Source of the DNA: a candidate division WOR-3 bacterium
Lineage (GTDB): Bacteria; Hydrothermota; Hydrothermia; B15-G9; WFZT01
Direction: 5' to 3'
Assembly: GCA_027053075.1 (NCBI GenBank)
Contig: JALUEE010000027.1
Coordinates: forward strand, 1-48,380
Length of the DNA stretch: 48,380 nt
Of the stretch, positions 17,501 to 36,358 are shown in pieces. Under the pieces are notes generated by a model. That model was not told the origin of the DNA and ran no database searches. It saw only the letters and a list, made by a program, of their open reading frames with translations. The translations under genes were made by a program, and so were the position numbers. Numbering within the stretch: the first letter of the stretch is position 1; each line of letters begins with the position of its first letter.

Positions 17501-17876
17501 CGACCTTTTGACCTAAAAGTGTATAAATTCCTCTAAAAATAGCAGGCGATTTCGGGTAAAAAGCGTCTTTCCTATAAATCGCAGGGTCCGGATAGCCTTT
17601 TGCAGGCTTCTTGAGTGAAAGTATGGCCGGAGGAGGAACGGCTGGAATATTGAATTTTCCGGGGATGTTCTCAAACTGTATATGCTTAATTTTGAAACTC
17701 TTCAGGTTTCCATCAACTGCGAAAAAGTATGCTTTCATGGGAATTGCGGGGACTCCAGCAGTGGCAGGGAGCACAAAATCCGAATCAAGTACCACAGGCT
17801 TTTGCCCCTTAAAAGTAATTTGTGGCCCGGTTATATGAAAACTAAACGAAACGACGAGGGCAAGTAATAAACTCAT
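14574..17876 (-). CDS. C25 family (gingipain-like) cysteine peptidase with propeptide, Ig-like/beta-sandwich domains and T9SS type-A-like C-terminal domain
   Basis: YLIIT, LLGGD, DLYYSDLDG, VGRAP, catalytic NHDGHG and IGCW, LLGDPAM; C-terminal VYDVTGRVV...AGVYFVRI. AGGAGG SD precedes ATG 17876. Confidence 0.9.
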   Translation of the reverse strand: MSLLLALVVSFSFHITGPQITFKGQKPVVLDSDFVLPATAGVPAIPMKAYFFAVDGNLKSFKIKHIQFENIPGKFNIPAVPPPAILSLKKPAKGYPDPAIYRKDAFYPKSPAIFRGIYTLLGQKVASLIFYPYRYNPVRRKLQLVKSVDIEIETTPAKTSIKKSRITASMIKDAISSLVANSEDVSLSIDTIQNGIDYLIITNTDMSNAFDSLARWYRKLGFETEVRTVEWIGSHYSGRDLAEKIRNYLKVCNQDSGLTFVLLGGDVEQVPARVAYAMTSGAGYVSDEDSIRADLYYSDLDGTWDANNNGTFGEVADSVDLYPDVFVGRAPVRNSEEAMTFVRKVIAYENPAPQYRDYQNKVLFFAEVLWNDPFTDEGVAKDMIDSLYIPPGQIITKLYETRGNENSAAVENSINGGVNLLNHDGHGWYTVMGTGPDVIRTSDIDNLTNGLRLGILYSIGCWVGAFDRDAISEHFIRNPHGGGVAFIGNSRYGWGSPGNPGYGYSDKFDEMFYRALLWYNEFRAGMALAFDKVSFVPLSRDENVYRWHQYQLNLLGDPAMPIWTEIPREISGEIPDTVIQGSELRISFENILKGHVYLIQGDSVVERGFIHYGNIILHIPSDISGPLTLTVFRRSFVPLIKQIYVQPNGYNLIADTILVRDTGAYPDSLLSPGESGIMRVIIRNSGNATSPPVQVSLTSTDSVLQVSTGTLSLPSLSPSGSDTLNFSYSVDSCRPHISILILRMGSDTSFLRLLITRPVLRGEGYVTENIVPGDTNNVIIVLVNYSPSPARDVTIHINSSNPGIRVLNDSLSFGEILREVDFTLPLYVESGVPIGERFTLMFSYRASGYVDSCAIDGVVGNSSYHEGFESTLEGWTLGNHWSVVERRHLGGQKSLYCGNPASWSYGNNWTTQAISPPIVLAYQPILSFALWYSVATYGSDGIYIEVSHDGIVDTLDFLGSGGALDSLTSFVNSWAVYRYPLRFLHAGDTVRVIFKFVSDEQDTAEGFYLDDFSITGYTLNPLDVHEGMAKKTFEIFYIPGGFEVIPHVGSRELLKVYDVTGRVVRTRLINGRGIYKVRNLKAGVYFVRIGKTVKRIAVLK

Positions 17877-18244
17877 AACCCAACCTCCTTTTCTCAAATG
17901 GTAATGACCCACCGCCAAACATGCAAGAAAATCCGTGAGTCTGCTTCAAAATTACCAAATTGCCGGTTTGAATAAATAAGCAATTGCTCTTATATGATGA
18001 ACTTATTAGATCCGAATATGAGGAGAGTTTGCTTATCCAAAAACCTCTTATTCCTGAAAAAATCACTCTTGGGGAGAGTTACATCTTGAATTCATAAATT
18101 TCACATGGAAAGGCCCCCACCTTATCTTTCCCTGAAGAGAAGAAAAGAAAATCTTCAGATTCATCTGAAGCGCGAGATAATGGGCTCGGGGGAAAAGTGT
18201 CGCAACCAATATTCAAGCCTCTTCGATCACGATCCTCGTAATAT

Positions 18245-18369
18245 GAGCCTGTTCGAAAAAATCTCAAATTCTTTGATTTTTGAGGAAAAATTTACCCCCC
18301 ACCTTGTTCCTCCCCCCACGCACAAAGTGCGTGGGGGGAGGAGAGGAGGGGGAATTTTCGAACAAGCTC
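18245..18369. mobile_element. MITE copy 1 (125 bp)
   Basis: TIRs gagcctgttcgaaaa / ttttcgaacaagctc, flanking direct repeat tcgtaatat (18236-18244 and 18370-18378), internal GC-rich hairpin. Near-identical to 29379..29504. Confidence 0.9.
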
Positions 18370-18377
18370 TCGTAATA

Positions 18378-18406
18378 TTGATATTTTTCTCCCGATGAAA
18401 TAAAAT
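18378..18406 (+). promoter_or_regulatory. putative sigma70 promoter of the AAA ATPase
   Basis: TTGATA-N17-TAAAAT. Confidence 0.6.
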
Positions 18407-18416
18407 TTTTCATGCA

Positions 18417-19631
18417 ATGAAAAAATTTCACTACCGCAAAAGATGGCTTGCTCACTCTGTCAAAATTGCCACTGAAATGATGGAAAGTGGAGCTATTTCT
18501 GTTATTACCCTCACTGGCGCAAGACAGGTTGGTAAAACCACATTCGTGAAGCACGAAGAGCCTTTTAGCTCTTGGGGTTATATCAATCTGGATGATTTAG
18601 ATACACTGGCTATAATTAAGAAAAATCCTGAACTTGTGCTGAGAAAAGAGAAGCATCTTGTTATAGATGAGATTCAAAGGGCACCAGAACTCCTTTTAAA
18701 TATCAAACTCCTTGCGGACAACGAAAATTTTAAATTCTTACTCACAGGCTCAGCAAATATTCTGGTTATGAAAAATGTTAGCGAAACTCTGGCTGGTAGA
18801 AGTGTTATTTTTTCACTCTTACCATTTGCCCTGAGAGAATGGGAAGAAAAAGCCCCAGGAGTGCTATTTGATTTCTTGTATAATGAGATTGAGCCAGAGG
18901 GAAGGAGAATCCAGAAGGTAGATGTAAAATCGAGGATAATAAATGGGTCAATGCCAGCAACAATGCTCTTAAAGAGAAGTTACAGGATTTGGTGGTATGG
19001 ATATATCAAAACTTACATTGAGAGGGATTTAAGGGACATTTCCTCTATTTCCAATCTTGCAGATTTCCATAGAATGCTTGAAATCTTAGCCCACATGACC
19101 GGTAACTTACTGGTAGAAACTGATATTGCGAGAAATATTGGAATAAGCGTGCCAACAACTCACAGATGGATCAATATCCTTGAGACCTCATTCATAATCT
19201 TCAAGTTAAGACCATATCTCAAAGGAAAGATTTCGAGAATAAGGAAAACACCCAAGATTTATTTTATTGACCCTGCTCTGAGTTTCCATTTAATGAAGAC
19301 GGAAGAGCCCACACAAAAAGAATGGGGACGACTGTTTGAAAATTTTGTTTTTCTCCAGCTCTTAGCAATGAAAAATGCCTTTGGTGGAGAATTATACTTC
19401 TGGCGAACCTCAGGTAGCACAGAAAGAGAAGTGGACTTTGTCCTGGAGTATAAGAGAAGGGTCATTGGCATAGAGGCTAAATTTAAAGAGGAAGTTACAA
19501 TGAAAGATGCTACCAATCTTATATTTTTCTGTGAAAACAACGATTGTGAAGCTGGATTTATCGTTTACACAGGTGATAGGATCATCAAGCTCTTAAGCAA
19601 TATCTGGGCAATACCTGTTGGGGAGATTTAA
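18417..19631 (+). CDS. AAA_14-type ATPase with DUF4143 (PD-(D/E)xK-like) C-terminus
   Basis: GARQVGKT, VIDEIQ, TGSA, SETLAGR, KIYFIDP, LFENFV, YFWRT and EVDF...IEAK. Confidence 0.9.
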   Translation: MKKFHYRKRWLAHSVKIATEMMESGAISVITLTGARQVGKTTFVKHEEPFSSWGYINLDDLDTLAIIKKNPELVLRKEKHLVIDEIQRAPELLLNIKLLADNENFKFLLTGSANILVMKNVSETLAGRSVIFSLLPFALREWEEKAPGVLFDFLYNEIEPEGRRIQKVDVKSRIINGSMPATMLLKRSYRIWWYGYIKTYIERDLRDISSISNLADFHRMLEILAHMTGNLLVETDIARNIGISVPTTHRWINILETSFIIFKLRPYLKGKISRIRKTPKIYFIDPALSFHLMKTEEPTQKEWGRLFENFVFLQLLAMKNAFGGELYFWRTSGSTEREVDFVLEYKRRVIGIEAKFKEEVTMKDATNLIFFCENNDCEAGFIVYTGDRIIKLLSNIWAIPVGEI

Positions 19632-19758
19632 ATTTACAGATTCCTGTACGATGAATTTATTTAATTGTTGGACTCTATGATAGATCTCTACGGAATAAAC
19701 ATGGAAAGGATGTATGAGTTATAAAGTGAAGTAATCCTCATAGGGCAACCTGAGTTTA

Positions 19759-20100
19759 TTACCACTTTTCATTTCTCATAATTTTCTCAATTTTAATTTT
19801 TAGTTCCGGAACATCTTTATGAATAGTTTTCCATATGATTTCGTAATTCACTCCGAAATATTCATGGATAAGCTTATCCCTCATCCCCGCAATTTCTTTC
19901 CAAGGAACCTCCGGATATTTTTCCTTAAACTCTGCTGGCAAATTTTTAACCGCCTCACCTATTATTTCAAGACTTCTTATAAATGCACGTACCAAAACGG
20001 GGTCTTTAATAAAATCACCAAAGCTCATTCCTTTGGATTTTTCCATCAGAAATTCGCATTCCTGTAAGATATGTTTAAGATAGGGCTTAGGGGATTTCAT
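19759..20100 (-). CDS. hepT: HepT-like HEPN RNase toxin (DUF86)
   Basis: LEIIGEA, PWKEIAGM and the RX4HXY motif RDKLIHEY. Confidence 0.9.
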   Translation of the reverse strand: MKSPKPYLKHILQECEFLMEKSKGMSFGDFIKDPVLVRAFIRSLEIIGEAVKNLPAEFKEKYPEVPWKEIAGMRDKLIHEYFGVNYEIIWKTIHKDVPELKIKIEKIMRNEKW

Positions 20101-20408
20101 ACTGTCACTACGTCTTTTATGTATGGTTTTATAAAAGGACTTATGCTTTCCTCGGTGAGAAGGTCAACTTTTATTCCCAGAATCCTCTCTAACTCCTCCT
20201 GAATCCTCACAAATTCGATAAGCGTGGGAATTTCCCTAAATTTCACAATTAAATCAATGTCACTTGACTCTTTCTGCTCACCCCTTACATAAGAACCAAA
20301 AATCTTTATTTCCTCAATCTTATATTTTATCCTAAGCTCCTCCCTGTGGTCCCTTAAAATTTCAATTATTTCAGACAAATTTTTCATGGTATCGTTTCTC
20401 TCCACCAT
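20097..20408 (-). CDS. mntA: MntA-like minimal nucleotidyltransferase antitoxin
   Basis: GSX10DXD motif (GSYVRGEQKESSDID) and KVDL; 4-nt overlap with the HEPN gene. The start may be ATG 20387. Confidence 0.9.
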   Translation of the reverse strand: MVERNDTMKNLSEIIEILRDHREELRIKYKIEEIKIFGSYVRGEQKESSDIDLIVKFREIPTLIEFVRIQEELERILGIKVDLLTEESISPFIKPYIKDVVTV

Positions 20409-20545
20409 AGATTGCTACAAGTGACATTTAGGTATTAATCGCTCATTACCGGAGTTTCAATACTCCTGCATACCTGACTTTGCTGATTTAAAAAACCTAT
20501 TCAGTCCCTCTTTCTGGCTGGATCCGTTTTTCCCTGTTTTACACC

Positions 20546-21166
20546 CTAATGTGCCCTTACTATATCCTTTATCTTCATTATTCTCACCTGGTCGGAGCGT
20601 TCCATTTCGGAGAGTTTCATGGTAATGAATTTTACCGTCTCCTCAAGACTGGGAATTAAGACATACTCAAGTGAATTTACCCGTCTGCGGGTGCGGACGA
20701 TTTCGTCGGCAATCATCTGAAGGGCCTTTTCCTTTGAGGCAAGGTCAATAAGTTTTTCAACTACACTCTCAAGGGCCAAAAGTGAGGCATCAAGTTCCGA
20801 GGATGTGGTTATAAAACTGTAGGAAATCATCTCACCGGAAATTTCCTGCTCAAATTCAGGCACCTTCAGGTTCATGAGCACGATAAGCTTTTCTATGACC
20901 TTAATATTTTTAGTAGGTATTAAAAATGCCTCTTTCACTTCCTCCGGCTCCATCAAGGCACGTGCAAAGAGAAATCTCCTTGTGGTCTCAGTTAGTTCCT
21001 TCTCAACCTCTTCCCTCAGCTCCTTTATACCACGCATCAGAATCAAGAGCTGCCGCACGAGCTCGTCCTGCTTATCCTTCAGGAGTTTGTGTCCGCGCTT
21101 TGCAAGAGCTGTCCGCTTTTTCAAGCGGAGCAGCTCCATTCGGGTCGGATTAACATCAAGCTTCAT
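20546..21166 (-). CDS. atpD: A/V-type ATP synthase subunit D
   Basis: NPTRMELL...RGHKLLKDK and [10 protein letters not shown]. Confidence 0.96.
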
Positions 21167-22578
21167 GATTCCTCTTTCTTAAACCTTGGTAAATACTTAT
21201 CCAGATATTCGTCTCTGATACGCTTGAGCTCTGATCTCGGGAACATGGAGAGGAGCTCCCAGCCGAGGTCCAGCGTCTGGAAAATGCTTCTGTCCTCGTA
21301 TTCCCCCTGCCCCACATACCTTTCCTCAAATATGTCGGCAAATTTGTAGTAGAGCTTATCCATCTCAGAAAGAGCGGCCTCACCCAAAATCACCGCAAGC
21401 TCCTGAGCCTCTTTACCGCGGGCATAGGCAGCAAAAAGCTGGTTGAATACGTCTGAGTGGTCTTCCCTCGTTTTCCCTTCACCAATTCCCTTGTCCTTCA
21501 AACGCGAAAGTGAGGGCAATACATCAATGGGTGGGTAAATCTTCTTTCTGTGAAGTGCCCTTGAAAGAATGATCTGGCCCTCTGTAATATAGCCCGTTAG
21601 GTCCGGAATTGGATGGGTTTTGTCATCCTCAGGCATGGTCAAAATGGGAATCAACGTGATGGACCCCTTCTTGTTTTTAATCCTTCCAGCCCTCTCATAA
21701 ATTGTCGCAAGGTCCGTGTAAAGATAGCCCGGATATCCACGACGTCCCGGCACCTCTTTCCTTGCCGCGGAAATCTCACGCAGCGCCTCACAGTAGTTGG
21801 TCATATCTGTCAAAATCACAAGCACGTGGTAATCTTTGGTGAATGCGAGGTATTCGGCAGTGGTCAAAACAACCCTTGGTGTCGCGATTCTCTCAATTGC
21901 CGGGTCATCTGCAAGGTTCAGGAAAAGCACTGTTCTCTCAAGCGCGCCGGTCTTTTTAAAATCGTTGATGAAAAATTCTGCCTCTTCAAAGGTAATTCCC
22001 ATGGCCCCGAAAACCACGGCAAACTCTTCCTGCTCACCGAGCACCTTTGCCTGACGCGCAATCTGAGCAGCAAGTTTATTGTGCGGCAATCCCGAGCCTG
22101 AAAAAATGGGTAGCTTTTGACCCCTCACAAGTGTATTGAGTCCGTCAATTGCAGAAATTCCCGTCTGAATAAACTCGTTAGGATAGTCCCTCGAATAGGG
22201 ATTGATAGGGGCACCGTTTATGTCCCTTCTCTCCTCAGCAATAATCTCCGGGCCACCATCAATGGGCCTTCCAAGACCATCGAAGACCCTGCCCAGCATG
22301 TCTGTTGAGAGCGGAAGTTCAATTCCCTTCGCAAGAAATCTAACCTTCGTCTTTGGTGTATCAATTCCGGTGGTTCCCTCAAAAACCTGAATCAGGGCCT
22401 TGTCGCGCTCCACCTGGAGCACCTGTCCGTGCCTTGATTCGCCAGATGGAAGCACAATTTCCACGAGCTCTGCATATTTAACACCCTCCACTCCCTCAAC
22501 AAGGAGAAGAGGACCGGAGATGTCATTAACAGCCTGATATTCGATAAATTTCTTGGAATTAAGCGACAGAGACGGCAT
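21163..22578 (-). CDS. atpB: A/V-type ATP synthase subunit B
   Basis: [28 protein letters not shown] and [15 protein letters not shown]. Confidence 0.97.
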
Positions 22579-24310
22579 TTTGAATTTCCTCCTGTATGGA
22601 TTTTGTTACTTCTTCAATTTTGTCCTCGGTGGCATATTTCATCCTTGCAATCCGCTCCCAGGTAGGTAACTCTTTGAGCTCCGCAACTGTCTTGCCCTGT
22701 TCGATCATCTTTTTGAGCTGCTCGTAGAAGAAAATGATGGTTTTGAGCATGAGATACTGTTTTTTGAGTGATGAATAAGTGTCCACCTCATGGAATGCGT
22801 TCTGGTGCAGAAAATCTTCTCTGATGGAGCGGGCAATCTCAAGAAGCAACTGGTCTTCCTGTGAAAGGTTTTCAACTCCCACAAGTCTGACAATCTCCTC
22901 AAGCTCAGCCTCTTTTTCAAGTATCCTCATGGCATAGTTTGTAAGGTCAAAGAAATCCTCTGCCACATTCTTCGATAGCCACTCCTTTGAAATATCCCTG
23001 TAGAGGGAATAGGATGTGAGCCAGTTAATTGCAGGGAAATGCCTTCTGTATGCAAGCTTATCCTCGAGTGACCAGAATACTTTCACAACCCTGAGGGTTG
23101 CCTGAACCACAGGGTCTGAGAGGTCACCACCGGGAGGTGAGACCGCACCGATAACGGTGAGTGAGCCTTCTCTATCCGGTGAGCCGAGGCATTTCACGCG
23201 CCCGGCCCTTTCATAGAATGTTGCAACCCTTGCTGCAAGGTATGCCGGGTATCCCTCTTCGCCGGGCATCTCCTCAAGACGCCCTGAAATCTCCCTCATT
23301 GCCTCAGCCCATCTTGATGTGGAATCGGCCATGAGGGCAACGGAATAGCCCATATCCCTGAAATACTCGGCAATGGTAATTCCTGTGTAAACTGAAGCCT
23401 CGCGGGCTGCCACAGGCATGTTGGATGTATTGGCAATAAGAACTGTTCTCTCCATTAAAGGCAGCCCTGAACGCGGGTCTTTCAACTCCGGAAATTCAAT
23501 CAATACGTCTGTCATCTCATTTCCACGCTCACCGCATCCGATATAAACCACGATGTCTGCATCAGACCACTTTGCAAGCTGGTGCTGAATAACCGTCTTG
23601 CCAGAGCCAAAGGGACCGGGAACACAGGCTGTGCCGCCTTTCGTTACAGGGAAAAACGTATCAATAACACGCTGTCCGGTCACCATGAGCTCGATCGGAA
23701 GCACCTTCTCCCTGAACGGTCTCGGCTTACGAACGGGCCATTTCTGCATCATTATGATGTCTTTTGTTTCGCCTTCCGGTGTCTTCACTTTCGCCACAGG
23801 CTCCTCGACCGTGTACTCGCCCTCTTGAATCTCGACAAGTTCACCCCTAACACCCGGTGGGACCATGATTTTGTGGACAACTAACTCGGTTTCCTGAACC
23901 TCTCCAATCACATCGCCGGCTTCGACAGTGTCACCTTTTTTCTTCGTGGGCTTGAAGTGCCATTTTTTCTCCCTATCCAGTGCAGGAACGTGGATACCCC
24001 TTGTGATAAAATCGCCTGCAAGTGCTGCGATCTTATCAAGCGGCCTCTCAACACCATCATAAATTGACCTGATCAGGCCCGGGCCAAGCTCCACAGAAAG
24101 AGGAGCACCTGTGGGATACACAGGCTCACCTGGCCCTACACCTGCAGTTTCCTCATAAACCTGAATGGATGCAAGGTCCCCCTTGAGCTCGATAATCTCG
24201 CCCAATAGTTTTTTCTCGCTAACCAGGGCCACATCATACATTTTAGCCCCGCTCATTCCCTCTGCCACCACGAGGGGACCTGCAACTTTTACAATTCTCC
24301 CAACTTCCAT
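22559..24310 (-). CDS. atpA: A/V-type ATP synthase subunit A
   Basis: Walker [17 protein letters not shown] and [12 protein letters not shown]; no intein. Confidence 0.97.
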
Positions 24311-24322
24311 GTTCTTTTCTCC

Positions 24323-24628
24323 TTAAAAAATATCTGCTCCGATTGCCCTTTTTATGATTTCTCTTAAATTCTCAAAAGCCCTGCCACTGCTGCCAAGTGG
24401 ACCGGGGATCGCCGAAATCACCGGAACCGCCTTCTCCATGGTCTTTTCAATCAGGTCACTCAGATGCTCGTAGTAATCCTCCTGAACAAAGATAAGTGAG
24501 TACCCGTCCAATGCGGATTTCACCGCCTCAACAGCCTCTTCTGCACTGTTTACCACTCTGATGTCAAAACCCACAGCACTGTATGGCATGACCACGTTTT
24601 TATTGCCTATGCATATAACGTTACTCAT
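24323..24628 (-). CDS. atpF: A/V-type ATP synthase subunit F
   Basis: 101 aa, C-terminal IKRAIGADI and operon position. Confidence 0.9.
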   Translation of the reverse strand: MSNVICIGNKNVVMPYSAVGFDIRVVNSAEEAVEAVKSALDGYSLIFVQEDYYEHLSDLIEKTMEKAVPVISAIPGPLGSSGRAFENLREIIKRAIGADIF

Positions 24629-25644
24629 CAGACCACCACCGTCAGGCTTTCTTTAATTTCCTGGGGTTTAACGTTGTAAAAAACTCCGATAAACGTGATC
24701 CGCAGGGCTCTGATCTCCTCGAATTTGAAGTAGAGATAGGCAATAATCGGCTCAACTCCCATATCAATCTTCCTCGTCTCCTTTAAAAAGCCGTTGAGAT
24801 ACGATTTCATGAGCCTTTCATAGACTCTCAGAGAACCGGATTCTTTGAACGCCCTGTATCCTTCCTCGTAAATTTTGCCATAAGGTGTGTAGGAAAGTCG
24901 GTCAACAAGTCCATCTGGCTCCTCGCTTAGAAACAGCCCCGGCTCGAGGTACCCGGTATCGAGCAGGTAATTTTTTAGCTGGTCTGCCGAATCAAGGTTG
25001 TAAAGCCTGAGAAAAGTTCTGATATTGATCAGGTCGGATTCTAAACGGTGATAAATGGCAAAAAAGTCATTCTCCGTGGCAGGAGAAGTGAGAAACCTAT
25101 ACATCTCGCGGTCAACTGCTGTAGAGAGGTCCTGGTAGCTTTTTGCCTCATAGTAAGCCGTGACGCCTGCCTCCACAGCCCGCGTCAGGTGCTCCGGCAA
25201 CCACGAATACTTTTCGTCCTTGAAAATCTGCTTCAGGTCGTCAATGGGCACCGTGCCGTCCTCGGAAAGTGCAAAGTCAAATTCCTTTTCCTCTATTTTC
25301 GATTTCAGGAGCACTTTAATGTTGTGAAAATCAAACTTTGCGCGCGCTTTTAGCTTTAAAGACTCGTCCTGGCAGAGTTCATCGAAGGTCTTTAGCACCT
25401 CTCGTCTCTCGGCAATGAGCATATTTTCAAATGAATCCTCGTCGCGAACATCGGCAAGGTATTTTGAATAGGGGGTCTCCTGCAAGAATTTTAGGTAATC
25501 TGCCACCTCACCAGCTTCGGCAAGTCGGTCGAAAAAGCTGCGCGGAATCAGGCTTTTCTCTAATACACGAATGCGGCCGACGGCATAGGTGTAGCGCGCA
25601 TCTTCCTTTCCAAACGGAGGATATTTCAAAAAGTTAATAGCCAT
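24628..25644 (-). CDS. atpC: A/V-type ATP synthase subunit C
   Basis: YAVGRIRVLE, DFHNIKVLLK and EPIIAYL...EIRALR. Confidence 0.9.
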   Translation of the reverse strand: MAINFLKYPPFGKEDARYTYAVGRIRVLEKSLIPRSFFDRLAEAGEVADYLKFLQETPYSKYLADVRDEDSFENMLIAERREVLKTFDELCQDESLKLKARAKFDFHNIKVLLKSKIEEKEFDFALSEDGTVPIDDLKQIFKDEKYSWLPEHLTRAVEAGVTAYYEAKSYQDLSTAVDREMYRFLTSPATENDFFAIYHRLESDLINIRTFLRLYNLDSADQLKNYLLDTGYLEPGLFLSEEPDGLVDRLSYTPYGKIYEEGYRAFKESGSLRVYERLMKSYLNGFLKETRKIDMGVEPIIAYLYFKFEEIRALRITFIGVFYNVKPQEIKESLTVVV

Positions 25645-26225
25645 TATTCCTCGAAGAGCAGACCTTTGATTTGGTCTTCAAGCTCGTCCTTCAGGTCAGG
25701 AATGATCACCTCGGGAGCAAGATTGATCTCAATCTTTCCCTGCTTCAATGTGAAGCCATAATAGCCACGTGCCTTTTCCTTTGAGAGAGTGAGCTCGAGT
25801 CCTGTTGTCTTTGCGAGTTCCTTCACAAATCCTCCATCCACTCTCTTTTCTCTGTCTCCGGGTATCACCTCAAATTTACCTTTTAGCTTGAGTGCCTTAA
25901 TGAAACTCGCAATGTGCTTGAGAAAGTCGCCTTTTGACTCTTCTTGGAGTTTTTTCTCCACTTTTACAAAGACGGAGTCCATGATTTCGCGCTTTGCCTG
26001 CAGGACTTTCTTGCGGAGCTCGATTACCTCAAGACCGATCTTTTTCTCTTTCTCTTTCTTCGCTACCTCTTCAGCCTCTTTTTTTGCGGATTCTATGATA
26101 AATTTCTTTTCCTTTTCCGCGTCCTCAAGGATGGCTTTTGCCTCAGCCTCTGCCTGCTTGATGATCTCCTTCGCCTGCTCTTCCGCCTCTTTTAATATTT
26201 TTTCTGTAATCTTTGAGCCGTGCAT
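25644..26225 (-). CDS. atpE: A/V-type ATP synthase subunit E
   Basis: Charged N-terminal coiled coil plus globular C-terminus; operon position. Confidence 0.85.
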   Translation of the reverse strand: MHGSKITEKILKEAEEQAKEIIKQAEAEAKAILEDAEKEKKFIIESAKKEAEEVAKKEKEKKIGLEVIELRKKVLQAKREIMDSVFVKVEKKLQEESKGDFLKHIASFIKALKLKGKFEVIPGDREKRVDGGFVKELAKTTGLELTLSKEKARGYYGFTLKQGKIEINLAPEVIIPDLKDELEDQIKGLLFEE

Positions 26226-26229
26226 GATG

Positions 26230-26721
<492 letters not shown>

Positions 26722-26767
26722 TTACTTTCAACGGGGTCTCCCCCGGGTGATAAGTTCACCTCCAGAT

Positions 26768-28759
26768 TTACGCACTTTTTCTTATTTCAGTGTAATAGCC
26801 CTCAATTCCAAAGGGCTTAAATTCATGGCCTCCGTTATCATAAAACTTCGTGAAAAATTCCACGTACTGAAGCCTCAAACTGTGAACAAAGGCACCCATG
26901 ACGTTGATTATTATGCTGAATAGATGCCCTCCAATGAAAATCAAAACAGCAAGTACAATCCCTAAATACGGGATTGGAAGCACAAGTTTTGCGACAATGT
27001 TGATGGACATGGCAATTCCGGCCGTCACCATCCCAAGAGCCATGAGCCTGACATAGGAGAGCAGGTCACCTACATATCCCGTGATTCCGTAGAGATTGTA
27101 GAGCCCTTTAACAAGCCTCACAACAAAGCTGCCCGATGTCCCGCCACTTAAGAAGATAATCAGTAGAATCGGTGCGAAAAGGAAAAATGAAATGATGTAG
27201 CCAACAACCCCGTAGTGAAAAAGAACTTCACCGTATGACTTCCCGACCTTCACCCCCACAATATAGGGGACAATGAGGAAAAGGATAAGGAAAAACCACG
27301 AGAGTTCATTTGCAATACCATCAATCAGTTCACCGTTTTTCACCCTTTTGTAAAATCCAACAAGAAGCCCCAGCTCCACCTGAATCAAACCCAGGACAAG
27401 GGAAAGGTAGAAAAACGGCATGGGATTTATCATGGGGTCAAAGAGTAGCAGGCTGTTTCTGAATTTGTGTAAAAATGGAACCGGCAGGGACGTAAATAGG
27501 TCGCCAAACCAGCTACCTGTTATCGCTCCTGCAAAAATTGCCATAATCCCACCATAAAGTAGAACACTCAAAAACTGCATTTTGCCAAGCTTTTTCATGA
27601 GAAGCAGGGCAATAATGATGAGCGAAATTCCGTACCCCGCATCTGTTAGACATAATCCAAAGAAAACCGCAAAAAATGGTGTCAAAAGTGGGGTGGGGTC
27701 AACCTCACGCAGATTGGGCAACCCGTAGAGCTTTGTTAAAAGCTCAAAGGGCTTAATGGGCTTTTTGTTATCAATAAAAGTTGGTGGATTGTCCTCTGGT
27801 GAGGGCTCTTCAACATTGTAGGTGGCAGATTCAAATTTTTTAAGGATTTTATCAAGTTTTTTGACGTCTTTTTCCTTTATCCAGCCTGTGACAAGGAACG
27901 TTGACTTTGTTTCCAGTCCCTGATTTTCCACGCGGACTTTATTGCCTTCATTTGAGAGAAAATCATAGACAATCAGAAGGTTGAGCTTTTCTTTTGCAAG
28001 CTCTGCTGCTTCTTTGAGCTTTTCTTCCCTCTCACGCCAGAGATTTTCAAGCTCCCTCTTGAATTTTTCTACCAGTTCTGCCGGCTTTCCTTTAAGCCCT
28101 TTAAAATCAACCTGCTCAAAACCCATTTTTAAAAGCTCATTTTTAACTTTAGTGGAAATTTCCTTTAAAAATGCGACGATAAGATAGACAAACCTTGAGT
28201 CACGGCTGATCACAGAATATTCGATATCTTCGATGTTTTTTAGCTCATATTCCTGATTTGCTGGAATGGTGCCAGCGACAATCTCCACTTTCTCAGAAAC
28301 TCCAATCTCTTCGACTGGGATATCGAGGTCATACCATTTTCTGAGGGAATCTATCCGGGATGTGAGGTTGGCTTCTAAATTCTTTAATTCGGTTAGCCTC
28401 TTTTCTATGCCCTCAATCTTATCGAGGGTCTTTTCATAATCGTAGGTCTTCGGGACTTTCCTTAGTTCTTCCTCTGTAATCTCCGGCTTGATTTCAAAGA
28501 ATGTCTCCAGGAAGCCTTTTTTGCCGTCAAATTGATTGAGAAATTCCACAGCTCGACGAATTCGCGAGAGTGTATATTCAATCTCAGGAGCAGATGCCTC
28601 GACCCTTTTCTCCTTTACTTCGGGGATTTCCTTGAATGCGGGGTCCTCTCTGACATCACTAATATGAACAAGCCCCTCTTCCTGCAGGGTATCAATAAGA
28701 TGGTCCTTTTCACTTTTGTGGACAACGAAAGTGATTTTCTTGACTTTTACAATAGCCAT
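26768..28759 (-). CDS. atpI: A/V-type ATP synthase subunit I
   Basis: YGLP...DPT, TDAGYG, SYVRLMALG and HSLRLQYVEFFTKFY. Confidence 0.96.
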   Translation of the reverse strand: MAIVKVKKITFVVHKSEKDHLIDTLQEEGLVHISDVREDPAFKEIPEVKEKRVEASAPEIEYTLSRIRRAVEFLNQFDGKKGFLETFFEIKPEITEEELRKVPKTYDYEKTLDKIEGIEKRLTELKNLEANLTSRIDSLRKWYDLDIPVEEIGVSEKVEIVAGTIPANQEYELKNIEDIEYSVISRDSRFVYLIVAFLKEISTKVKNELLKMGFEQVDFKGLKGKPAELVEKFKRELENLWREREEKLKEAAELAKEKLNLLIVYDFLSNEGNKVRVENQGLETKSTFLVTGWIKEKDVKKLDKILKKFESATYNVEEPSPEDNPPTFIDNKKPIKPFELLTKLYGLPNLREVDPTPLLTPFFAVFFGLCLTDAGYGISLIIIALLLMKKLGKMQFLSVLLYGGIMAIFAGAITGSWFGDLFTSLPVPFLHKFRNSLLLFDPMINPMPFFYLSLVLGLIQVELGLLVGFYKRVKNGELIDGIANELSWFFLILFLIVPYIVGVKVGKSYGEVLFHYGVVGYIISFFLFAPILLIIFLSGGTSGSFVVRLVKGLYNLYGITGYVGDLLSYVRLMALGMVTAGIAMSINIVAKLVLPIPYLGIVLAVLIFIGGHLFSIIINVMGAFVHSLRLQYVEFFTKFYDNGGHEFKPFGIEGYYTEIRKSA

Positions 28760-29070
28760 TATTCAAAAACCAGTTCAAAGACTTTTTTAACGGCAGAGTC
28801 TATCTTTTTTTCGCCCTGTTCTTTTATCTTTTTAACCTTCTCTTCGGTTTCTTTCTGAAGTCTTTTGATCTCCTCGTCAGCCTCTTTATCTGCTTTTTTA
28901 ATGGCAGCCTCGATTATTTCCTGCCTCTTTTTCTCGGCTTCAGCCCGGAGCTCTTCCCTCTTTTTCTTGGCATCTTCTACGATTTTTCGTGCCTTTTCCT
29001 GCGCTTCTTTTACAATACTATCTGCCTTTTGCTCTGCCTCTTTAATTTCTTTAATGATTTCAACAGCCAA
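28759..29070 (-). CDS. atpH: A/V-type ATP synthase subunit H/G (peripheral stalk)
   Basis: 103-aa K/E/A-rich coiled coil, first gene of the operon; TTG start with GGAGG SD. Confidence 0.85.
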   Translation of the reverse strand: MAVEIIKEIKEAEQKADSIVKEAQEKARKIVEDAKKKREELRAEAEKKRQEIIEAAIKKADKEADEEIKRLQKETEEKVKKIKEQGEKKIDSAVKKVFELVFE

Positions 29071-29103
29071 TGTGAAACCTCCCTTTGAAAAATCAGGTAA
29101 AAG

Positions 29104-29133
29104 ATTGTATTGAGCTTATAGTGGACCTGTCAA
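29104..29133 (-). promoter_or_regulatory. putative sigma70 promoter of the ATPase operon
   Basis: Minus strand TTGACA-N18-TACAAT. Confidence 0.55.
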
Positions 29134-29378
29134 GGCAATTCAGGCCCGATTTCACAAGTTTTCATCACACTTTTAAAGAATTGACAATATTGACTAATTT
29201 AATAAAGGGAAAGGAGTGGGAATAAGGAACATTTCCTCACCGTAAAGATGAGAAAGCCAGCAGTGTGCATATATCAATGAGAGTCTGAACATTTCTTTAC
29301 TTACAGAGTCAATTTAGACAATTCATAAGCCACACACAGTAAATGAAGGAAAAGCAATTTTGACGAAAATCGAGGTAT

Positions 29379-29504
29379 GAGCCTGTTCGAAAAAATCTCA
29401 AATTCTTTGATTTTTGAGGAAAAATTTACCCCCCACCTTGTTCCTCTCCCCACGTATAAAGTGCGTGGGGGGGAGAGGAGGAGGGGGAATTTTCGAACAA
29501 GCTC
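29379..29504. mobile_element. MITE copy 2 (126 bp)
   Basis: Same TIRs as copy 1; flanking direct repeat atcgaggtat (29369-29378 and 29505-29514). Confidence 0.9.
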
Positions 29505-29513
29505 ATCGAGGTA

Positions 29514-29542
29514 TTGACATCAAAATACAAAAGGCATATAAA
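29514..29542 (+). promoter_or_regulatory. putative sigma70 promoter upstream of the HEPN/KAP genes
   Basis: TTGACA-N17-TATAAA. Confidence 0.65.
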
Positions 29543-29654
29543 TAATCGTAATCGTAAATTGTGAGAATTCTATCTGAATGAGGTTTCAAGCAATTGGTTC
29601 AACTATATCGCGCAATTAGTGTCATAGTCGGTCACTAATTGTTTGGACTTTACA

Positions 29655-30461
29655 ATGATGAAATCTGTTATTGAACGTTTCAAAGAGGATCTTGACAAGT
29701 TGATTTATAAAGGGGAGCGTCTTCTTTTTTCAATGCAAAGGGAATGTTTTCCTGAAGAATTTGACCGTGCCATGAAGAGAAAATTTGGTGATCAAGTACA
29801 AGATATCATAAACTCCCTTCCCTCTTTTACTGATGAGTATCAGAGTTGGTACTCAGAAGCATTGATACTAATGAAACAACTGCTTCCTGACAGAGTTGCA
29901 GATTTCGTTCGTTATTATGCAAAACCCAGAGGACGAAAAGACATTGACTATGAATCTTACAGAATTGAAAATTATCTTCAAGGCCTGAGAGTAAATAGTT
30001 TAGGTAAAAAAATCGTAGGTCCAGAAGCTGCTATACCTCTTTTTCGACAGCAATTGGCTATGTTGAAGTCTGCAAGACGCCGTTTCGAGAGTTCCATATT
30101 TGATATTCGTCAACTGGTGCAAGCGGACCTCTTTGATTCAGAACTAGAAGCAGCCAAAGTGCTTCTGAAACATAAGTTTTTACGTGCGGCAGGGGCTTTG
30201 GCTGGCGTAGTGCTTGAGCGGCATCTTAAACAAGTGTGTGATAATCATGGCATAAAGGTGAGGAAGAAATCTCCAACTTTCGCCGATTTAAATAATGCTT
30301 TGAAAGAAAACGAAGTTATTGAGATTGTTAAATGGCGCTATATCCAGCACTTGGCGGATATCCGTAATCTATGCACTCATGACAAAAAGGTTGAACCCTC
30401 AACATAACAGGTCGGTGAGTTAATAGATGGTGTCTCAAAATTGACAAAGACAGTATTTTAG
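29655..30461 (+). pseudogene. HEPN-domain (DUF4145-like) protein with premature stop near the C-terminus
   Basis: RAAGALAGVVLERHL and the RX4H motif RNLCTH. After TAA 30405-30407 the frame continues QVGELIDGVSKLTKTVF* to 30461, an amphipathic terminal helix. It may still be expressed as a truncated protein. Confidence 0.65.
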
Positions 30462-30666
30462 CGTTTTACTTTATCCACCTTTAAGGTGGGTTAACCCATA
30501 AGGTAGCAGATTTAGCCTTTACGCTAATTTTGAGGCGGCAATTTGCAATGTGAGTGTCGGGTCTGTTGAAATGGAGTTGTGCTAATCCACAATCTTGGTA
30601 GAAAGAGTGTATATGTATAAATTTCAAACTGCTTCGAAAAAGCAGCACACAGGGAGAAAAAATTAC

Positions 30667-32733
30667 ATGCCCTTAAAGGCCGATAAACCAATTAAAACCC
30701 CAAAGGAAGATGTACTTGGTAGAGCAGAGGTTGCGGTGTCATTTGCTAAGCAACTTTTGTCACTTGATATATCTGAAGGTGTCGTTGTAGGTGTCCTTGG
30801 CCCTTGGGGATCTGGAAAGACATCCTTCGTTAACTTGGTACGGGGATATTTGGAAAATCTCCGTGTTCCTGTGCTTGATTTCAATCCATGGATGTTTAGT
30901 GGCACTGAACAGCTTATAGATTCATTCTTCATTGAACTTTCTGCACAATTGAAACTCAATTCTACCCTTCATGAAATCGGAAAGGCTTTAGAAAGTTACG
31001 GAGAGATTTTTTCTGGGTTGGGCTCGTTACCTTTTGTAGGTCCATTGATTGAAGGAAGTTCAAAAGTTTCAAAGACTTTAGCCAAGATTCTCCAGCGTAG
31101 AGAGGGGGGCATTACCAGTTCTCGAGTCAAAGTTGAGAAAGCTTTGGCAACTCTTGATAAACCGATTGTTGTAATCATTGATGACATTGACAGATTAACT
31201 GTGTCAGAGATTCAGGATATCTTCAAGCTTGTTCGGTTGACCGCGAATTTTCCTAATGTTATTTATATTTTGGCTTTCGATCGTCTTCGAGTAGAGCAAG
31301 CTCTTACTGAGCAAGGTCTCCCTGGTCGTGATTACCTTGAAAAGATACTCCAGATCAGTGTTGACCTCCCCGCAATTCCAAACCAAATACTGAACAGGCA
31401 TATTTCACAAGCTATTAACGAAGCGATTGACGGAATTAAAAATCCTGGTCCATTTCAAAAAGAGCGCTGGCCAGATGTTTTCATGGAAATTATTCGTCCC
31501 TTATTCAAAAACATTCGAGATGTGCGGCGTTATGCACTTGCTGTCCATGGTACAGTACTAAACTTAAACGGCCAAGTTGCCCTTGTTGATGTGTTAGCGT
31601 TGGAGGCTATTCGAGTTTTCCTACCTGATGTTTTCTATCAGATACATGAGTCTATCGACGGACTCACTGAGACCTCTGAGATCACTTTAGATACTTACGA
31701 AAATCAGTCACCCCTGAAGGAGCAGATTGACCAATTGATTGAAACGGCTGGTAATAAAGCTAATGTTGTTCGAGCACTTATAACGCGGATTTTCCCTGCT
31801 GCCGAACGACATATAGGTGGTCTTCGTTACGGAGATGAGTGGAAAAAACGATGGCTTCAAGAACGACGCGTTGCTCATGAGCACATCCTTAGATTTTATT
31901 TAGAACGTCTTCCAAGTAAAGGGTTACAAGCGTTTGTGGACGCTGAGCGGGCTTTCGAGAAAATGGCAAACCTCGAAGAGTTCAACCATTATCTTCGTTC
32001 ACTTGACCCTTCACGGCTGGAAGATGTTATAGCTTCCTTGGAAGTGTTTGAAGATAGATTTCGTGCTGAGCATGTGGTACCAGGGGTAGTTGTGCTACTC
32101 AATATATTACCTGAAATACCCGAGAGACCATTGGGGATGTTTGATTTAGGGCCCGAATTAATTGTGAGCCGTGTGGTTTACCGGTTAATTCGCTCTTTAC
32201 AGGACCACAGTAGAGTAGAGGAAGCTGTTAGAAATATTATTCGCCATCTCAATACCCTTTACGCAAAGGAATTATTGATCACGATGGTCGGCTATCAAGA
32301 AGGGGCAGGACATAAACTTGTGTCAAAGAAAGCAGCAGAGAACTTCGAAAAAGAATGGAGAGATGAGGTACGTTCTGCCTCTATTAGCACTTTAATAAAG
32401 GAAAAAGGTCTCCTCAGAATTTTATTACTTGTGAAACGCAGGGCAGGCCCAGAAGAACCTCCACTGGATATCCCTGATTCACCCTTTATGACTCTTGCTC
32501 TTCTACGATCCGCTCAGGTTGAGGTTTACAGTCAATCTATGGGGAGTCGATTTGTGCGTCCTTCCGTTCGCCTTGCATGGGATGAATTGGTTGAATTGTA
32601 TGGAAGCGAAGATGTTCTTCGTGATAGAATCGAGAAGCTGAAGTCAACACATCCAGAAGGTGCAGATGAACTGCTCTCTTTGGTGGATAAGTATCTCGCA
32701 GGTTGGCGCCCCAGCGATTCTGGTAGAAATTAG
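30667..32733 (+). CDS. KAP-family P-loop NTPase
   Basis: DVLGR, Walker A GPWGSGKTS, FNPWMF, Walker B VIIDDIDRL and YLEKILQ. ATG 30667 with a GGAG SD is preferred. Confidence 0.9.
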   Translation: MPLKADKPIKTPKEDVLGRAEVAVSFAKQLLSLDISEGVVVGVLGPWGSGKTSFVNLVRGYLENLRVPVLDFNPWMFSGTEQLIDSFFIELSAQLKLNSTLHEIGKALESYGEIFSGLGSLPFVGPLIEGSSKVSKTLAKILQRREGGITSSRVKVEKALATLDKPIVVIIDDIDRLTVSEIQDIFKLVRLTANFPNVIYILAFDRLRVEQALTEQGLPGRDYLEKILQISVDLPAIPNQILNRHISQAINEAIDGIKNPGPFQKERWPDVFMEIIRPLFKNIRDVRRYALAVHGTVLNLNGQVALVDVLALEAIRVFLPDVFYQIHESIDGLTETSEITLDTYENQSPLKEQIDQLIETAGNKANVVRALITRIFPAAERHIGGLRYGDEWKKRWLQERRVAHEHILRFYLERLPSKGLQAFVDAERAFEKMANLEEFNHYLRSLDPSRLEDVIASLEVFEDRFRAEHVVPGVVVLLNILPEIPERPLGMFDLGPELIVSRVVYRLIRSLQDHSRVEEAVRNIIRHLNTLYAKELLITMVGYQEGAGHKLVSKKAAENFEKEWRDEVRSASISTLIKEKGLLRILLLVKRRAGPEEPPLDIPDSPFMTLALLRSAQVEVYSQSMGSRFVRPSVRLAWDELVELYGSEDVLRDRIEKLKSTHPEGADELLSLVDKYLAGWRPSDSGRN

Positions 32734-33390: not shown

Positions 33391-33437
33391 CATTGTCAAC
33401 CTAATTGTCAACCAAATGAATCCTGTTTTTGTCAACC
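33391..33437. repeat. 47-bp direct repeat copy A (3 x TTGTCAACC)
   Basis: 40/47 identical to 34510..34556; overlaps the last codons and stop of the regulator gene. Confidence 0.9.
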
Positions 33438-34495
33438 TCAACACGCCTGAAAAAGGGGATAAGTTCTGGGGGAACATTTATTACTTTAACAATTAAGTCT
33501 TTTTCACCAGACGGGAAAACTCTTAAGAGCTCGTCAAGGAACCCCTGCCCAACCATCTCAACTTTTTTGAAATCAAATATCACCTCTTTAAATTTCCCCC
33601 TTATGGGCTGAACCAATCTTTTTGCCTGGGATCGAGAAATAAGCTTTTTCCCCAGGATAGTCACCACCACTCTTGATATCTGGAAATTAAAATCATACCT
33701 GTATGGCGCATAAATCTCGAATATATCACTCAATCTTTTCCTCATGTTATAGGGTACAACAAAAGCAACAACAGTACCCTTTATGTAACCCTTCAATTTC
33801 TCAACCCAAGCTTCCTGACCATAATTATCAAAATGTAATGCCAGTTTATGAGATTTAATAACCATTTTCCTTGATGCTTTTGATGAGAAAAAAATGCCTT
33901 CACCTGTGTGTCTCTCCTTCTGCGTGGTTGTCTTCCCGGGTATAAGCCATGTAATTGCATCTGATTCAGAATTAAGCCCAAATTCATCTGATATTCGCTT
34001 AAAAATCCCAACTCCATAATCCCTGATTTCCATACTCAAACTGTAATTTTCAAATTTAACAACGACATCTATCCACGGAGACGATGAATGGTCAATGGCA
34101 TTATTGAATATTTCTGTAAAAACATACCTGCAATTATCTAAGGCATTCGTGTTAAGGAATTTTTTCAAATTTGTTACCGCAGCAACCTTATCAAATACTA
34201 TGTCCTCTGACTCATCCGGCTTAAATCTGAACCTTATCTCCCTTTTTATTGCCTGTCTTGCTACCAGATTCCTCGGAATTACTTTTTTACCGATACTTTT
34301 TATTCCCTCTTCGGTTAAAAAATATCCTGAATTTTTTGTTCTCCCGATCTTTAACAACAACCCCTGCTCTATCAGCCTTTTTACCCTTTTATGAACTGCC
34401 TGTCTGCTAATACCAAGCCTTCGACCAATTTCTGAAAGTGTTGTATTATTATCATTGAAGATGTATTCCAGGATTTCCCTATCCTTCTTGTCCAT
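33401..34495 (-). CDS. winged-helix + HATPase + STAS-like (DUF4325) protein
   Basis: HTH EIGRRLGISRQAVHKRVKRLIEQG; HATPase boxes EIFNNAIDHS, DYGVGIF and GEGIFFS; STAS-like SRSQAKRL...DFKKVEMVGQGFLDE. Confidence 0.85.
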   Translation of the reverse strand: MDKKDREILEYIFNDNNTTLSEIGRRLGISRQAVHKRVKRLIEQGLLLKIGRTKNSGYFLTEEGIKSIGKKVIPRNLVARQAIKREIRFRFKPDESEDIVFDKVAAVTNLKKFLNTNALDNCRYVFTEIFNNAIDHSSSPWIDVVVKFENYSLSMEIRDYGVGIFKRISDEFGLNSESDAITWLIPGKTTTQKERHTGEGIFFSSKASRKMVIKSHKLALHFDNYGQEAWVEKLKGYIKGTVVAFVVPYNMRKRLSDIFEIYAPYRYDFNFQISRVVVTILGKKLISRSQAKRLVQPIRGKFKEVIFDFKKVEMVGQGFLDELLRVFPSGEKDLIVKVINVPPELIPFFRRVEVDKNRIHLVDN

Positions 34496-34509: not shown

Positions 34510-34556
34510 CATTGTCAACCTGATTGTCAACCAATTTAACTTAGTTTTTGTCAACC
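34510..34556. repeat. 47-bp direct repeat copy B (3 x TTGTCAACC), overlapping the promoter
   Basis: On the minus strand the middle box supplies TTGACA-N17-TAATAT-N6-ATG(34495). Confidence 0.9.
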
Positions 34557-34795
34557 AATACCCAAAAACCCGTTTGGAAATTCTATAGAGTGCGTAAACG
34601 GTCGTATTCTCTGCTTTACTCGTTCACACAACTAATATCCATGCGGCAACCCGGTCAGAGTAAGGAAGTTAAAAATTCGAGATGTATTTTTCTCCCTTCT
34701 CATATTAGGTAAAAACTAACCAAGTAATAATTTCGGTTGGTTGAAGGATTTCCCAGATAATCACAAGAATTTGTTTGAATTAGCTGCATAAAAAT

Positions 34796-35622: not shown

Positions 35623-36358
35623 TGCTGAACCTCCTGTTTGAGTTTTAATGAATAATAATTGTGAAGTGCGAATCAATCAAGGTTAAGAGGTGAACTGAGC
35701 TCATTCAGAAAATGCTGAATCTTAGTTACCACCTTTTTCCTACTCCCACAAATCCTCGTAACCTCAACGAAATTCGCAGACCAGTCGGTAAGTTGCCCGT
35801 CCTTCACTGGGAAAGAAAGGGTTAAGGGGGAAATGGGGCATGATTAACACTCTTTAAACTATCAGGGTAACGATATTCCTGAAGATGGTTGGATACTTTC
35901 GCTCGATTATTTTTACATTCCACCCCAACCCTCCCCTCCGAAGGGCTGACGTCACCCACGAATTTCTGGAAAATAACACCTCATCCCTTACCACGACTAC
36001 AAAAAGGTGTACTACGCTCAATATTTGAACACTCTCTTTATACGGTATAAACGAATATATCCTTCCGGTAAAAGTTGTTGATTTAGTGCGAAAAATTGAA
36101 TTTCCCGCCCAGATTGCGTTGTATAAATATACATGAAAAGCAAAAACATGGGTGATGTCAGCTCCGAAGGGAGGGAGGGAGTTTCGCTAATCATTACGGC
36201 TGGTGAATCTTGAGTCATTCAGATTTTAACCTCCTCAATACACTCAACGCAGCACAAATGGATAACCAGGGGGTGACATTTTCTAACAGGTTCGGTGATA
36301 CTTGATAAAATTTACCGTTTACTTTAATTTGTAAGCCTAAAATTAACCGGAGGGCCGT

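Follow-up and report, generated by a model that had tools for sequence, protein, structure and literature searches.

The question raised by this locus is why two nearly identical repeats should each have a target duplication that runs up to the first base of a -35 box. They lie in a stretch of 48,380 nucleotides (contig JALUEE010000027.1 of assembly GCA_027053075.1, from a candidate division WOR-3 bacterium), and the whole of that stretch is called the window here. Both repeats are short, bounded by terminal inverted repeats (TIRs), free of any transposase and present in multiple copies, as is typical of transposable elements of the miniature inverted-repeat type (MITEs). The two are 95% identical, and their TIRs (GAGCCTGTTCGAAAA and GAGCTTGTTCGAAAA) are complementary at 14 of 15 positions. 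It is almost certain that they are MITEs of a multi-copy family and that they were inserted in register with the -35 box. The original prediction, made from the sequence of the window alone, described 15-bp TIRs, different target duplications, a -35 hexamer starting on the last duplicated base and a 17-bp spacer; all of these coordinates were confirmed (Table 1), and its view is upheld that the element is non-autonomous, was inserted independently each time and is aimed at sigma70-type promoters in a constant register. A promoter scan called the promoter at copy 1 (10 of 12); the one at copy 2 fell below the scan rule because the final T of its -10 box is absent. Each copy also carries, as had been noted, a strong G+C-rich hairpin (-72.5 kcal/mol, z -9.8; none of 200 shuffles was as strong). 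This hairpin is absent from the calls of a terminator scan, for which an intrinsic terminator is a stem followed by a U-run, and it gave 0/23 matches at the gathering score against Rfam.

The genome of the window (2.4 Mb, denoted G000) contains 209 TIR-like ends at up to two mismatches, compared with 10 after shuffling. Of these ends 208 have flanks; counted outward, the first base of TTGACA (at most one mismatch) lies at offset 9 for 35 of them and at offset 10 for 22, and each of the remaining 57 offsets has 0-6 cases (1-4 at each of the offsets 13-18). When ends were paired and a duplication was demanded, 43 elements resulted, with lengths of 93-1868 bp; none was dropped, and a few may be false pairs. 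The duplication is 9 bp long in 33 of them, 10 bp in nine and 8 bp in one. A -35-like hexamer with up to two mismatches starts on the last duplicated base in 36 of the 43 elements, and within one mismatch in 23; the better of the two sides was chosen for the count of 36, and about 4.8% of control hexamers are equally good. The offset first seen at the window copies is thus kept by other genomic copies, both at the level of ends (57/208 at offset 9 or 10) and of elements (36/43). On the opposite side of the target there are at least three mismatches in 42 of 43 elements, so the target is one-sided and a symmetric (palindromic) target is excluded. The aligned site counts, out of 43, are T40 T39 G34 A36 C21 A23, then 17 bases, then T32 A32 T19 A23 A27 T27. 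The aligned sites have no consensus within the duplication, and a faint TTC bias just 5' of it may partly stem from older tandem elements. The consensus TCGnnnTATTGA fits two of the 43 sites, both of them the window copies; the shared target motif TCGnnnTA that had been proposed therefore describes this pair and is not a rule of the family.

The register tracks the length of the duplication (9 with 9-bp and 10 with 10-bp duplications) in G000 and in a related genome (G004), and the promoter side is therefore the anchor. Concerning orientation, the two window copies do point the same way, as predicted; genome-wide this does not hold, since 10 of the 19 hairpin-type G000 copies with a good hexamer have the hairpin end toward the promoter and nine the other end. 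Among hairpin-type copies private to G004 the numbers are 15 and 4, respectively. Full insertion sequences (ISs) and subfamilies with different interiors keep the same register, from which it follows that the hairpin is dispensable for targeting. A co-oriented open reading frame (ORF) lies just downstream of 24 of the 36 in-register sites. The expectation of accessory or defence genes downstream is borne out by the copy-1 gene, which matches PDC-S01, and not as a general bias: a Pfam scan of 20 downstream ORFs assigned families to 13, for the most part housekeeping ones such as RecJ, IMP dehydrogenase, LptF/G, V-ATPase subunits and FKBP.

G004 was sampled at 60 loci taken from the best matches, which gave 32 confirmed elements, 10 of them also found in G000. 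The hexamer is in register in 28 of the 32, and two have 11-bp duplications. For 16 of the 22 insertions private to G004, the orthologous G000 site is empty and has a single target copy with the hexamer already present, as the proposed comparison of empty sites in a relative was meant to reveal; the promoter is thus older than the element. Based on crude ORF calls, 15 of these 16 empty orthologues are non-coding, even though TTGACA hexamers genome-wide are mostly coding (1355 coding vs 290), and selection or targeting must therefore be strong. No clean empty site was found for either window copy: in G004 the copy-1 promoter is occupied by an older, diverged member of the family, and past the copy-2 site the region is a different one. 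A junction of 17953 with 18378 is seen in one contig of run X2, but its short side has only 30 letters and is too weak to count. Sites are also reused as tandem stacks, because the duplication rebuilds the target. Such stacks are found in G000; in G197 they consist of full ISs arranged head to tail (G197:C1:240475-245339; L067, L084), where the same 10-bp duplication lies between the copies and the tandem ends at TTGATT-17-TAAAAT. In contigs of runs X3 and X6, compared with window positions 17700-19000, the right and left ends of the MITE are linked by roughly 7 bases, representing either tandem copies or a circle junction.

An autonomous IS with the same TIR, sought on the suggestion of the original prediction, was found in G004 (G004:C168:4933-5993). 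It is 1061 bp long, both of its ends are GAGCCTGTTCGAAAA and identical to the MITE TIRs, its 10-bp duplication ends on TTGACA, and it contains a single ORF of 309 amino acids. The shared ends, duplication length and target register indicate that this IS5-type element, which resembles ISAae1 and ISTth7, is likely to mobilise the MITE. A full IS end in G004 (L022) abuts an antisense TTGATA-17-TATAAT within an IS110-type transposase gene. Two sets of candidates in G000 were rejected as the mobiliser: the matches to PF00872 (one) and PF01609 (five) lack the family TIRs, and the 1868-bp TIR-bounded element G000:C14:7052-8919 is a MITE of the family with an IS110-type transposase gene inside (family assigned by eye). 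This is the gene that in G004 (L022) itself holds the IS5-type element at the antisense promoter-like site. A scan of genome contigs yielded only four loci.

The partner transposase matches DDE_Tnp_1. Its best NCBIfam model is NF033579 (IS5), at 104 bits against a cut-off of 140, and all 37 family members match at E<=0.001; it is 40% identical to the transposase of ISAae1 (E 4.6e-51) and 27% to that of ISTth7 (E 2e-5). The signature of the IS5 family is a DDE triad with Y-2-R-3-E-6-K. In the family transposases D112, D188 and E246 are invariant, R242-E246-K253 is present in 37/37 and Y239 in 33/37. A profile search gave 846 transposase representatives at E<=0.001; the metagenome scan used alignment A1, and the broad alignments A2 and A3 had no sufficiently conserved stretch. 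The predicted structure (predicted local distance difference test, 93.6) would comprise an N-terminal helical domain and the DDE core only, with no extra domain. The model is closest to Tn5 (Z 15.5, root-mean-square deviation 5.0, 264 aligned) and less close to ISCth4 (Z 11.3, 6.3, 229); Foldseek gave ISCth4 the lowest E-value (TM 0.41-0.45) and Tn5 the higher TM (0.50-0.53). A predicted complex of the transposase with the host sigma region 4 scored 0.02 against a mark of 0.32, which speaks neither for nor against such a contact.

The same register is seen in other lineages. In Thermotogota, a deltaproteobacterial assembly and metagenome contigs, TTGACA (at most one mismatch) lies at offsets 9-11 in 36 of 83 distinct ends (20, 13 and 3 at offsets 9, 10 and 11, and at most two at each other offset), and 24 of those 36 have a -10 box at 16-18 bp. 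Seven of the eight elements confirmed there by a duplication are in register with both boxes, among them ISAae1 on an Aquifex plasmid (TTTACA-16-TATACT); the exception is an inner tandem copy. Across 61 Thermotogota-centred genomes (around G158), TTGA is found at offset 9 or 10 in 10 of 21 exact TIR matches. For ISTth7, sampled in five Thermus plasmid records and one region, 11 of 33 distinct ends have the hexamer at offset 9 (two of them at the same promoter), and other offsets have at most two each. Eleven ISTth7 elements have perfect 9-bp duplications; eight of these are within one mismatch and one has two. Two further loci were noted. L090 (G065:C13:3546-6560) contains at 1473-1515 a candidate minimal element of 43 bp, nearly just a pair of TIRs, flanked on either side by a TTGAC-type hexamer at offset 10, and in a Thermotogaceae assembly (L050, from 871 onward) an IS end abuts a perfect TTGACA-17-TATAAT before a tRNA-like gene (by eye).

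The promoter side of each element was picked by the -35 hexamer alone, and the -10 box is therefore an independent test. TATAAT (at most one mismatch) is present exactly 17 bp further on at 20 of 41 sites, compared with 2.0 expected from intergenic positions with the same hexamers; the two sites that do not start with T were left out of this count. With all 43 sites it is 20 against 3.9 in a strict control, whose sites are non-coding and lie 30-250 bp upstream of the start of a gene in the same orientation (genes from crude ORF calls). Over 65 pooled sites the spacer is 17 in 23 and 18 in five, with at most two at each other value between 8 and 29. The excess is largest where the hexamer is poor: a -10 box accompanies 8 of 17 hexamers with two mismatches (1.0 expected) and 12 of 23 with one mismatch (3.6 expected).

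The pattern of sites suggests that the transposition complex may be positioned by promoter-bound sigma70-type RNA polymerase, to which we give an even chance. We favour this reading because of the 17-bp spacer peak and the rescue of weak hexamers by a -10 box, since a -10 box at weak hexamers is hard to explain by a reading of six bases. A broader form of it, that a clade of the IS5 family, found in at least five bacterial lineages, independently evolved docking, in which it binds the sigma70 holoenzyme in the manner of class II activators and cuts at the first -35 base pair, appears to us slightly less probable than even. Following the chemistry of DDE enzymes, the cut on the promoter side would be constant, separating base pairs 1 and 2 of the -35 box, and the far cut would fall 9-11 bp upstream, shifting by 1-2 bp; the two cuts would bound the duplication. 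The complex would have its anchor on the promoter side and its centre near -39/-40. This zone is where class II activators touch sigma region 4. The duplication would restore the bases beside the -35 box, so that the core promoter would survive and only the upstream (UP-element) DNA would be displaced. The target site would stay reusable, giving rise to tandem stacks, and the outcome would be a safe haven in which the element multiplies without severing genes from their promoters.

A number of observations weigh against positioning by the polymerase, or limit it. Seven of the 43 G000 elements lack the -35 motif, and no intact partner transposase was found in G000, only broken remnants. At perfect TTGACA sites the -10 box is present in 9/17 vs 6.9 in the strict control, which is not significant. 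For the 22 G004-private sites the same control gives 3 vs 3.0 at 17 bp and 7 vs 5.2 at 16-18 bp, again not significant, and with a looser TAnnnT rule 9/21 vs 5.9 (P 0.09); against all intergenic positions that rule gives 9/21 vs 3.6 (P 0.003). The triple-repeat site at window position 34557 is in register without a -10 box at 16-18 bp, and the same box is missing from four of the 11 in-register ISTth7 ends. ISTth7 inside the ago gene of a Thermus laboratory strain has a duplication which ends on TTGACG, also without a -10 box; this is presumably the laboratory-arisen insertion reported in PMC6352166. Given the ago and 34557 sites, the hexamer alone can set the register, at least under selection. 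Two of the 11 ISTth7 elements with perfect 9-bp duplications have no motif. The control rates used for the other phyla are those of G000 and not host-matched, and some of the 83 ends may be chance matches. If sigma region 4 is bound, a cut within the -35 box may collide with it. Finally, with a single exception the sites are insertions fixed in genomes and already filtered by selection.

The alternative which survives best is that the transposase itself reads a TTGACA-like hexamer one-sidedly, as a mimic of sigma region 4, and that active promoters are favoured as open, bent or nucleoid-protein-free DNA, the -35 box being just the hexamer that matches best where the DNA is accessible. We regard this as a tentative but serious possibility. 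It explains the in-register sites with a -35 box alone (the ago insertion and window position 34557) better than the polymerase model does, and it agrees with the weak -10 excess at the G004-private sites; also, a cut within the -35 box fits direct contact. It sits less well with a target profile as loose as that of the sigma70 -35 box, in which poor hexamers are used mainly together with a -10 box, and with a predicted fold that has no extra domain, though the fold excludes neither model. That TTGACA is read anywhere regardless of promoter state, and that the excess of complete promoters reflects purifying selection against insertions in genes and leaders, we consider unlikely. The non-coding position of nearly all empty orthologues amid mostly coding hexamers, and the agreement of perfect-hexamer sites with the strict control, would be expected in that case, whereas neither the 8-fold -10 excess at weak hexamers over a gene-upstream control nor the sharp peak at spacer 17 would easily be produced. 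It is very improbable that the family is a derivative of Mutator-type elements (ISLre2/ISKra4), with which the original prediction had compared it, or a domesticated insulator or terminator cassette kept at accessory-gene promoters: according to passages of PMC3942029 ISKra4-group elements have 8-9 bp duplications and target promoters in both orientations, and the Foldseek E-values, the strong hairpin and the copy-1 gene might be taken the same way, yet the C/DxxH motif is found in 0/37 transposases, the D-E spacing is 53-63 against an insert of 99-138 amino acids, the offset is not the 15-17 bp published for such elements, the model is nearer to Tn5, the lone PF00872 match in G000 lacks these TIRs, and full ISs and subfamilies with other interiors share one register in both orientations with housekeeping genes downstream, so that a Mutator origin is largely refuted.

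The features of the window are collected in Table 1, together with a third, longer family member that is absent from the original prediction.

Table 1. Positions in the window of the promoter-associated MITEs, their target duplications and the neighbouring features
Feature	Positions	Strand	Details
Left target duplication, MITE copy 1	18236-18244	+	9 bp, TCGTAATAT
MITE copy 1	18245-18369	+	125 bp; TIRs 18245-18259 and 18355-18369
Copy-1 hairpin, G+C-rich	18296-18352	.	perfect 16-bp inner stem 18308-18342
Right target duplication, copy 1	18370-18378	+	TCGTAATAT; final base doubles as the -35 box's first T
Copy-1 promoter-like site	18378-18406	+	TTGATA 18378-18383, 17 bp, TAAAAT 18401-18406; putative, by consensus match
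Gene downstream of copy 1	18417-19631	+	AAA_14 and DUF4143 ATPase; PADLOC candidate family PDC-S01
Left target duplication, MITE copy 2	29369-29378	+	10 bp, ATCGAGGTAT
MITE copy 2	29379-29504	+	126 bp; TIRs 29379-29393 and 29490-29504
Right target duplication, copy 2	29505-29514	+	ATCGAGGTAT; final base doubles as the -35 box's first T
Copy-2 promoter-like site	29514-29542	+	TTGACA 29514-29519, 17 bp, TATAAA 29537-29542; putative
ORF downstream of copy 2	29643-30407	+	254 amino acids; without Pfam or PADLOC family
Empty site at triple repeat	34510-34557	-	in G004 a family MITE abuts the first TTGACA
Third, older family member	35697-36293	.	597 bp, degenerate TIRs; duplication GGTGAACT 35689-35696 / GGTGATACT 36294-36302
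Unrelated MITE nested in the third element	35946-36161	.	216 bp, own 10-bp duplication
Promoter-like site of the third element	36302-36330	+	TTGATA-17-TAATTT, starts on the last duplicated base

Beside the copy-1 gene, and convergent with it, is a nucleotidyltransferase and HepT-like pair of the MNT-HEPN type (19759-20408). A strong promoter-like site (11 of 12) of a V-type ATPase operon lies at 29104-29133 on the minus strand, back to back with copy 2 and 245 bp apart from it, and the ORF downstream of copy 2 is followed by a KAP NTPase at 30595-32733 with a PADLOC match to PifA (E 6.7e-64). The gene at 33401-34495 encodes a protein with a helix-turn-helix, an ATPase-like and a STAS-like part. 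It is flanked by triple TTGTCAAC repeats at 33391-33437 and 34510-34556, which are operator-like and made of -35-type hexamers, and it is the upstream one that carries the family MITE in G004. Three tandem 126-bp coding repeats at the end of the window (48043-48378) probably belong to a helical-repeat protein.

Concerning other repeats in G000, a second MITE family of 214-216 bp has ends of its own, and its duplications are mostly 10-12 bp; 26 left ends were found, 23 of them with both ends. It inserts in the stems of G/C-rich hairpins, that of the promoter-docking MITE among them, and is present in the window (Table 1) and in 25 further places. Several 350-bp forms of the promoter-docking MITE exist because a second-family MITE was inserted in the stem. 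The hairpin core CACGCAC-nnn-GTGCGTG occurs 121 times in G000, 68 of them within 330 bp of a TIR end, and the remainder resemble a free repeat of the repetitive extragenic palindromic type.

Docking at the promoter edge would explain how about 100 elements accumulated upstream of housekeeping genes in a genome of 2.4 Mb. As ISTth7 is reported to be very active and has the same register, polymerase tethering and direct reading of the -35 box could be told apart by direct test. If the favoured reading is true, insertion at the promoter edge has arisen by convergent evolution, as a second and unrelated safe-haven solution beside that of TnGBS/ISLre2, and with ISTth7 a complex of transposase and RNA polymerase would for the first time become tractable. 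Insertion scars would then annotate promoters in uncultured phyla, and the mechanism could be turned into a tool that puts DNA immediately upstream of promoters.

Among known systems, the nearest to the partner IS are ISAae1 of Aquifex aeolicus and ISTth7 of Thermus thermophilus, which like it belong to the IS5 family and have lengths of 1.0-1.1 kb, 15-16 bp TIRs starting with G and 9-bp duplications; the present analysis adds the -35 register to what they have in common with the window family. The subgroup of ISTth7 is given as ISH1 in Table 2 of PMC6352166 and as IS427 in the available part of PMC9456066. It is described as very active in a laboratory thermophile, with an insertion in ago that arose in the laboratory (PMC6352166, in part), and promoter targeting is not reported in the parts of these two papers available to us (the word 'promoter' occurs 0 times in PMC6352166). 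ISAae1 is not mentioned in the open-access papers searched. We found no -35-register targeting by IS5-family elements in the open-access literature, which does not include the first description of ISTth7, where a consensus could be given, nor was such a register present in the available passages of PMC9208149, PMC10969869 and PMC3299598.

MITEAba12, with the IS5-family elements ISAba12, ISAba13 and IS903, is a similar case in that a co-resident IS5-family element mobilises a MITE with the same TIRs and 9-bp duplications (passages of PMC6382973). It differs in its reported preference for AT-rich DNA and in showing no sequence trend in the duplication; the outer flanks are unprofiled in those passages. 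A preference for DNA bound by H-NS has also been described (passages of PMC11335895), and neither source reports a -35 register in these passages. In Escherichia coli, IS5 also inserts upstream of promoters (fucAO, bgl, flhDC), but in the accounts available these hotspots are selected, linked to stress or DNA structure, and gene-activating, without a genome-wide fixed register.

The closest parallel in behaviour is TnGBS/ISLre2 (p-MULT3) and the ISKra4 group (p-MULT4), which according to passages of Guerillot et al. (2014, PMC3942029) insert 15-17 bp upstream of the -35 box of sigmaA promoters, within a window of 13-17 bp, and in both orientations when the inverted repeats are near-perfect. 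In the same passages contact with the polymerase is proposed by analogy with Ty3 and not shown, and the transposases are characterised by C/DxxH 11-19 amino acids after the second D and by a helical insert of 99-138 amino acids between the second D and E. That a transposase finds promoters through contact with the initiation complex was thus proposed before, unproven in those passages; the present case concerns another superfamily and base-pair precision. The window family works like ISLre2/ISKra4 but is not a member of it. Like those elements, so far as the passages describe them, it is a DDE element placed at a fixed position upstream of sigma70/sigmaA promoters in both orientations. Its duplications are mostly 9-10 bp (8-11 seen), and those of the published elements 8-9 bp. 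Unlike them, it has a transposase of another superfamily, only 8-9 bases between TIR and -35 box, and a duplication which takes in the first base of the -35 box.

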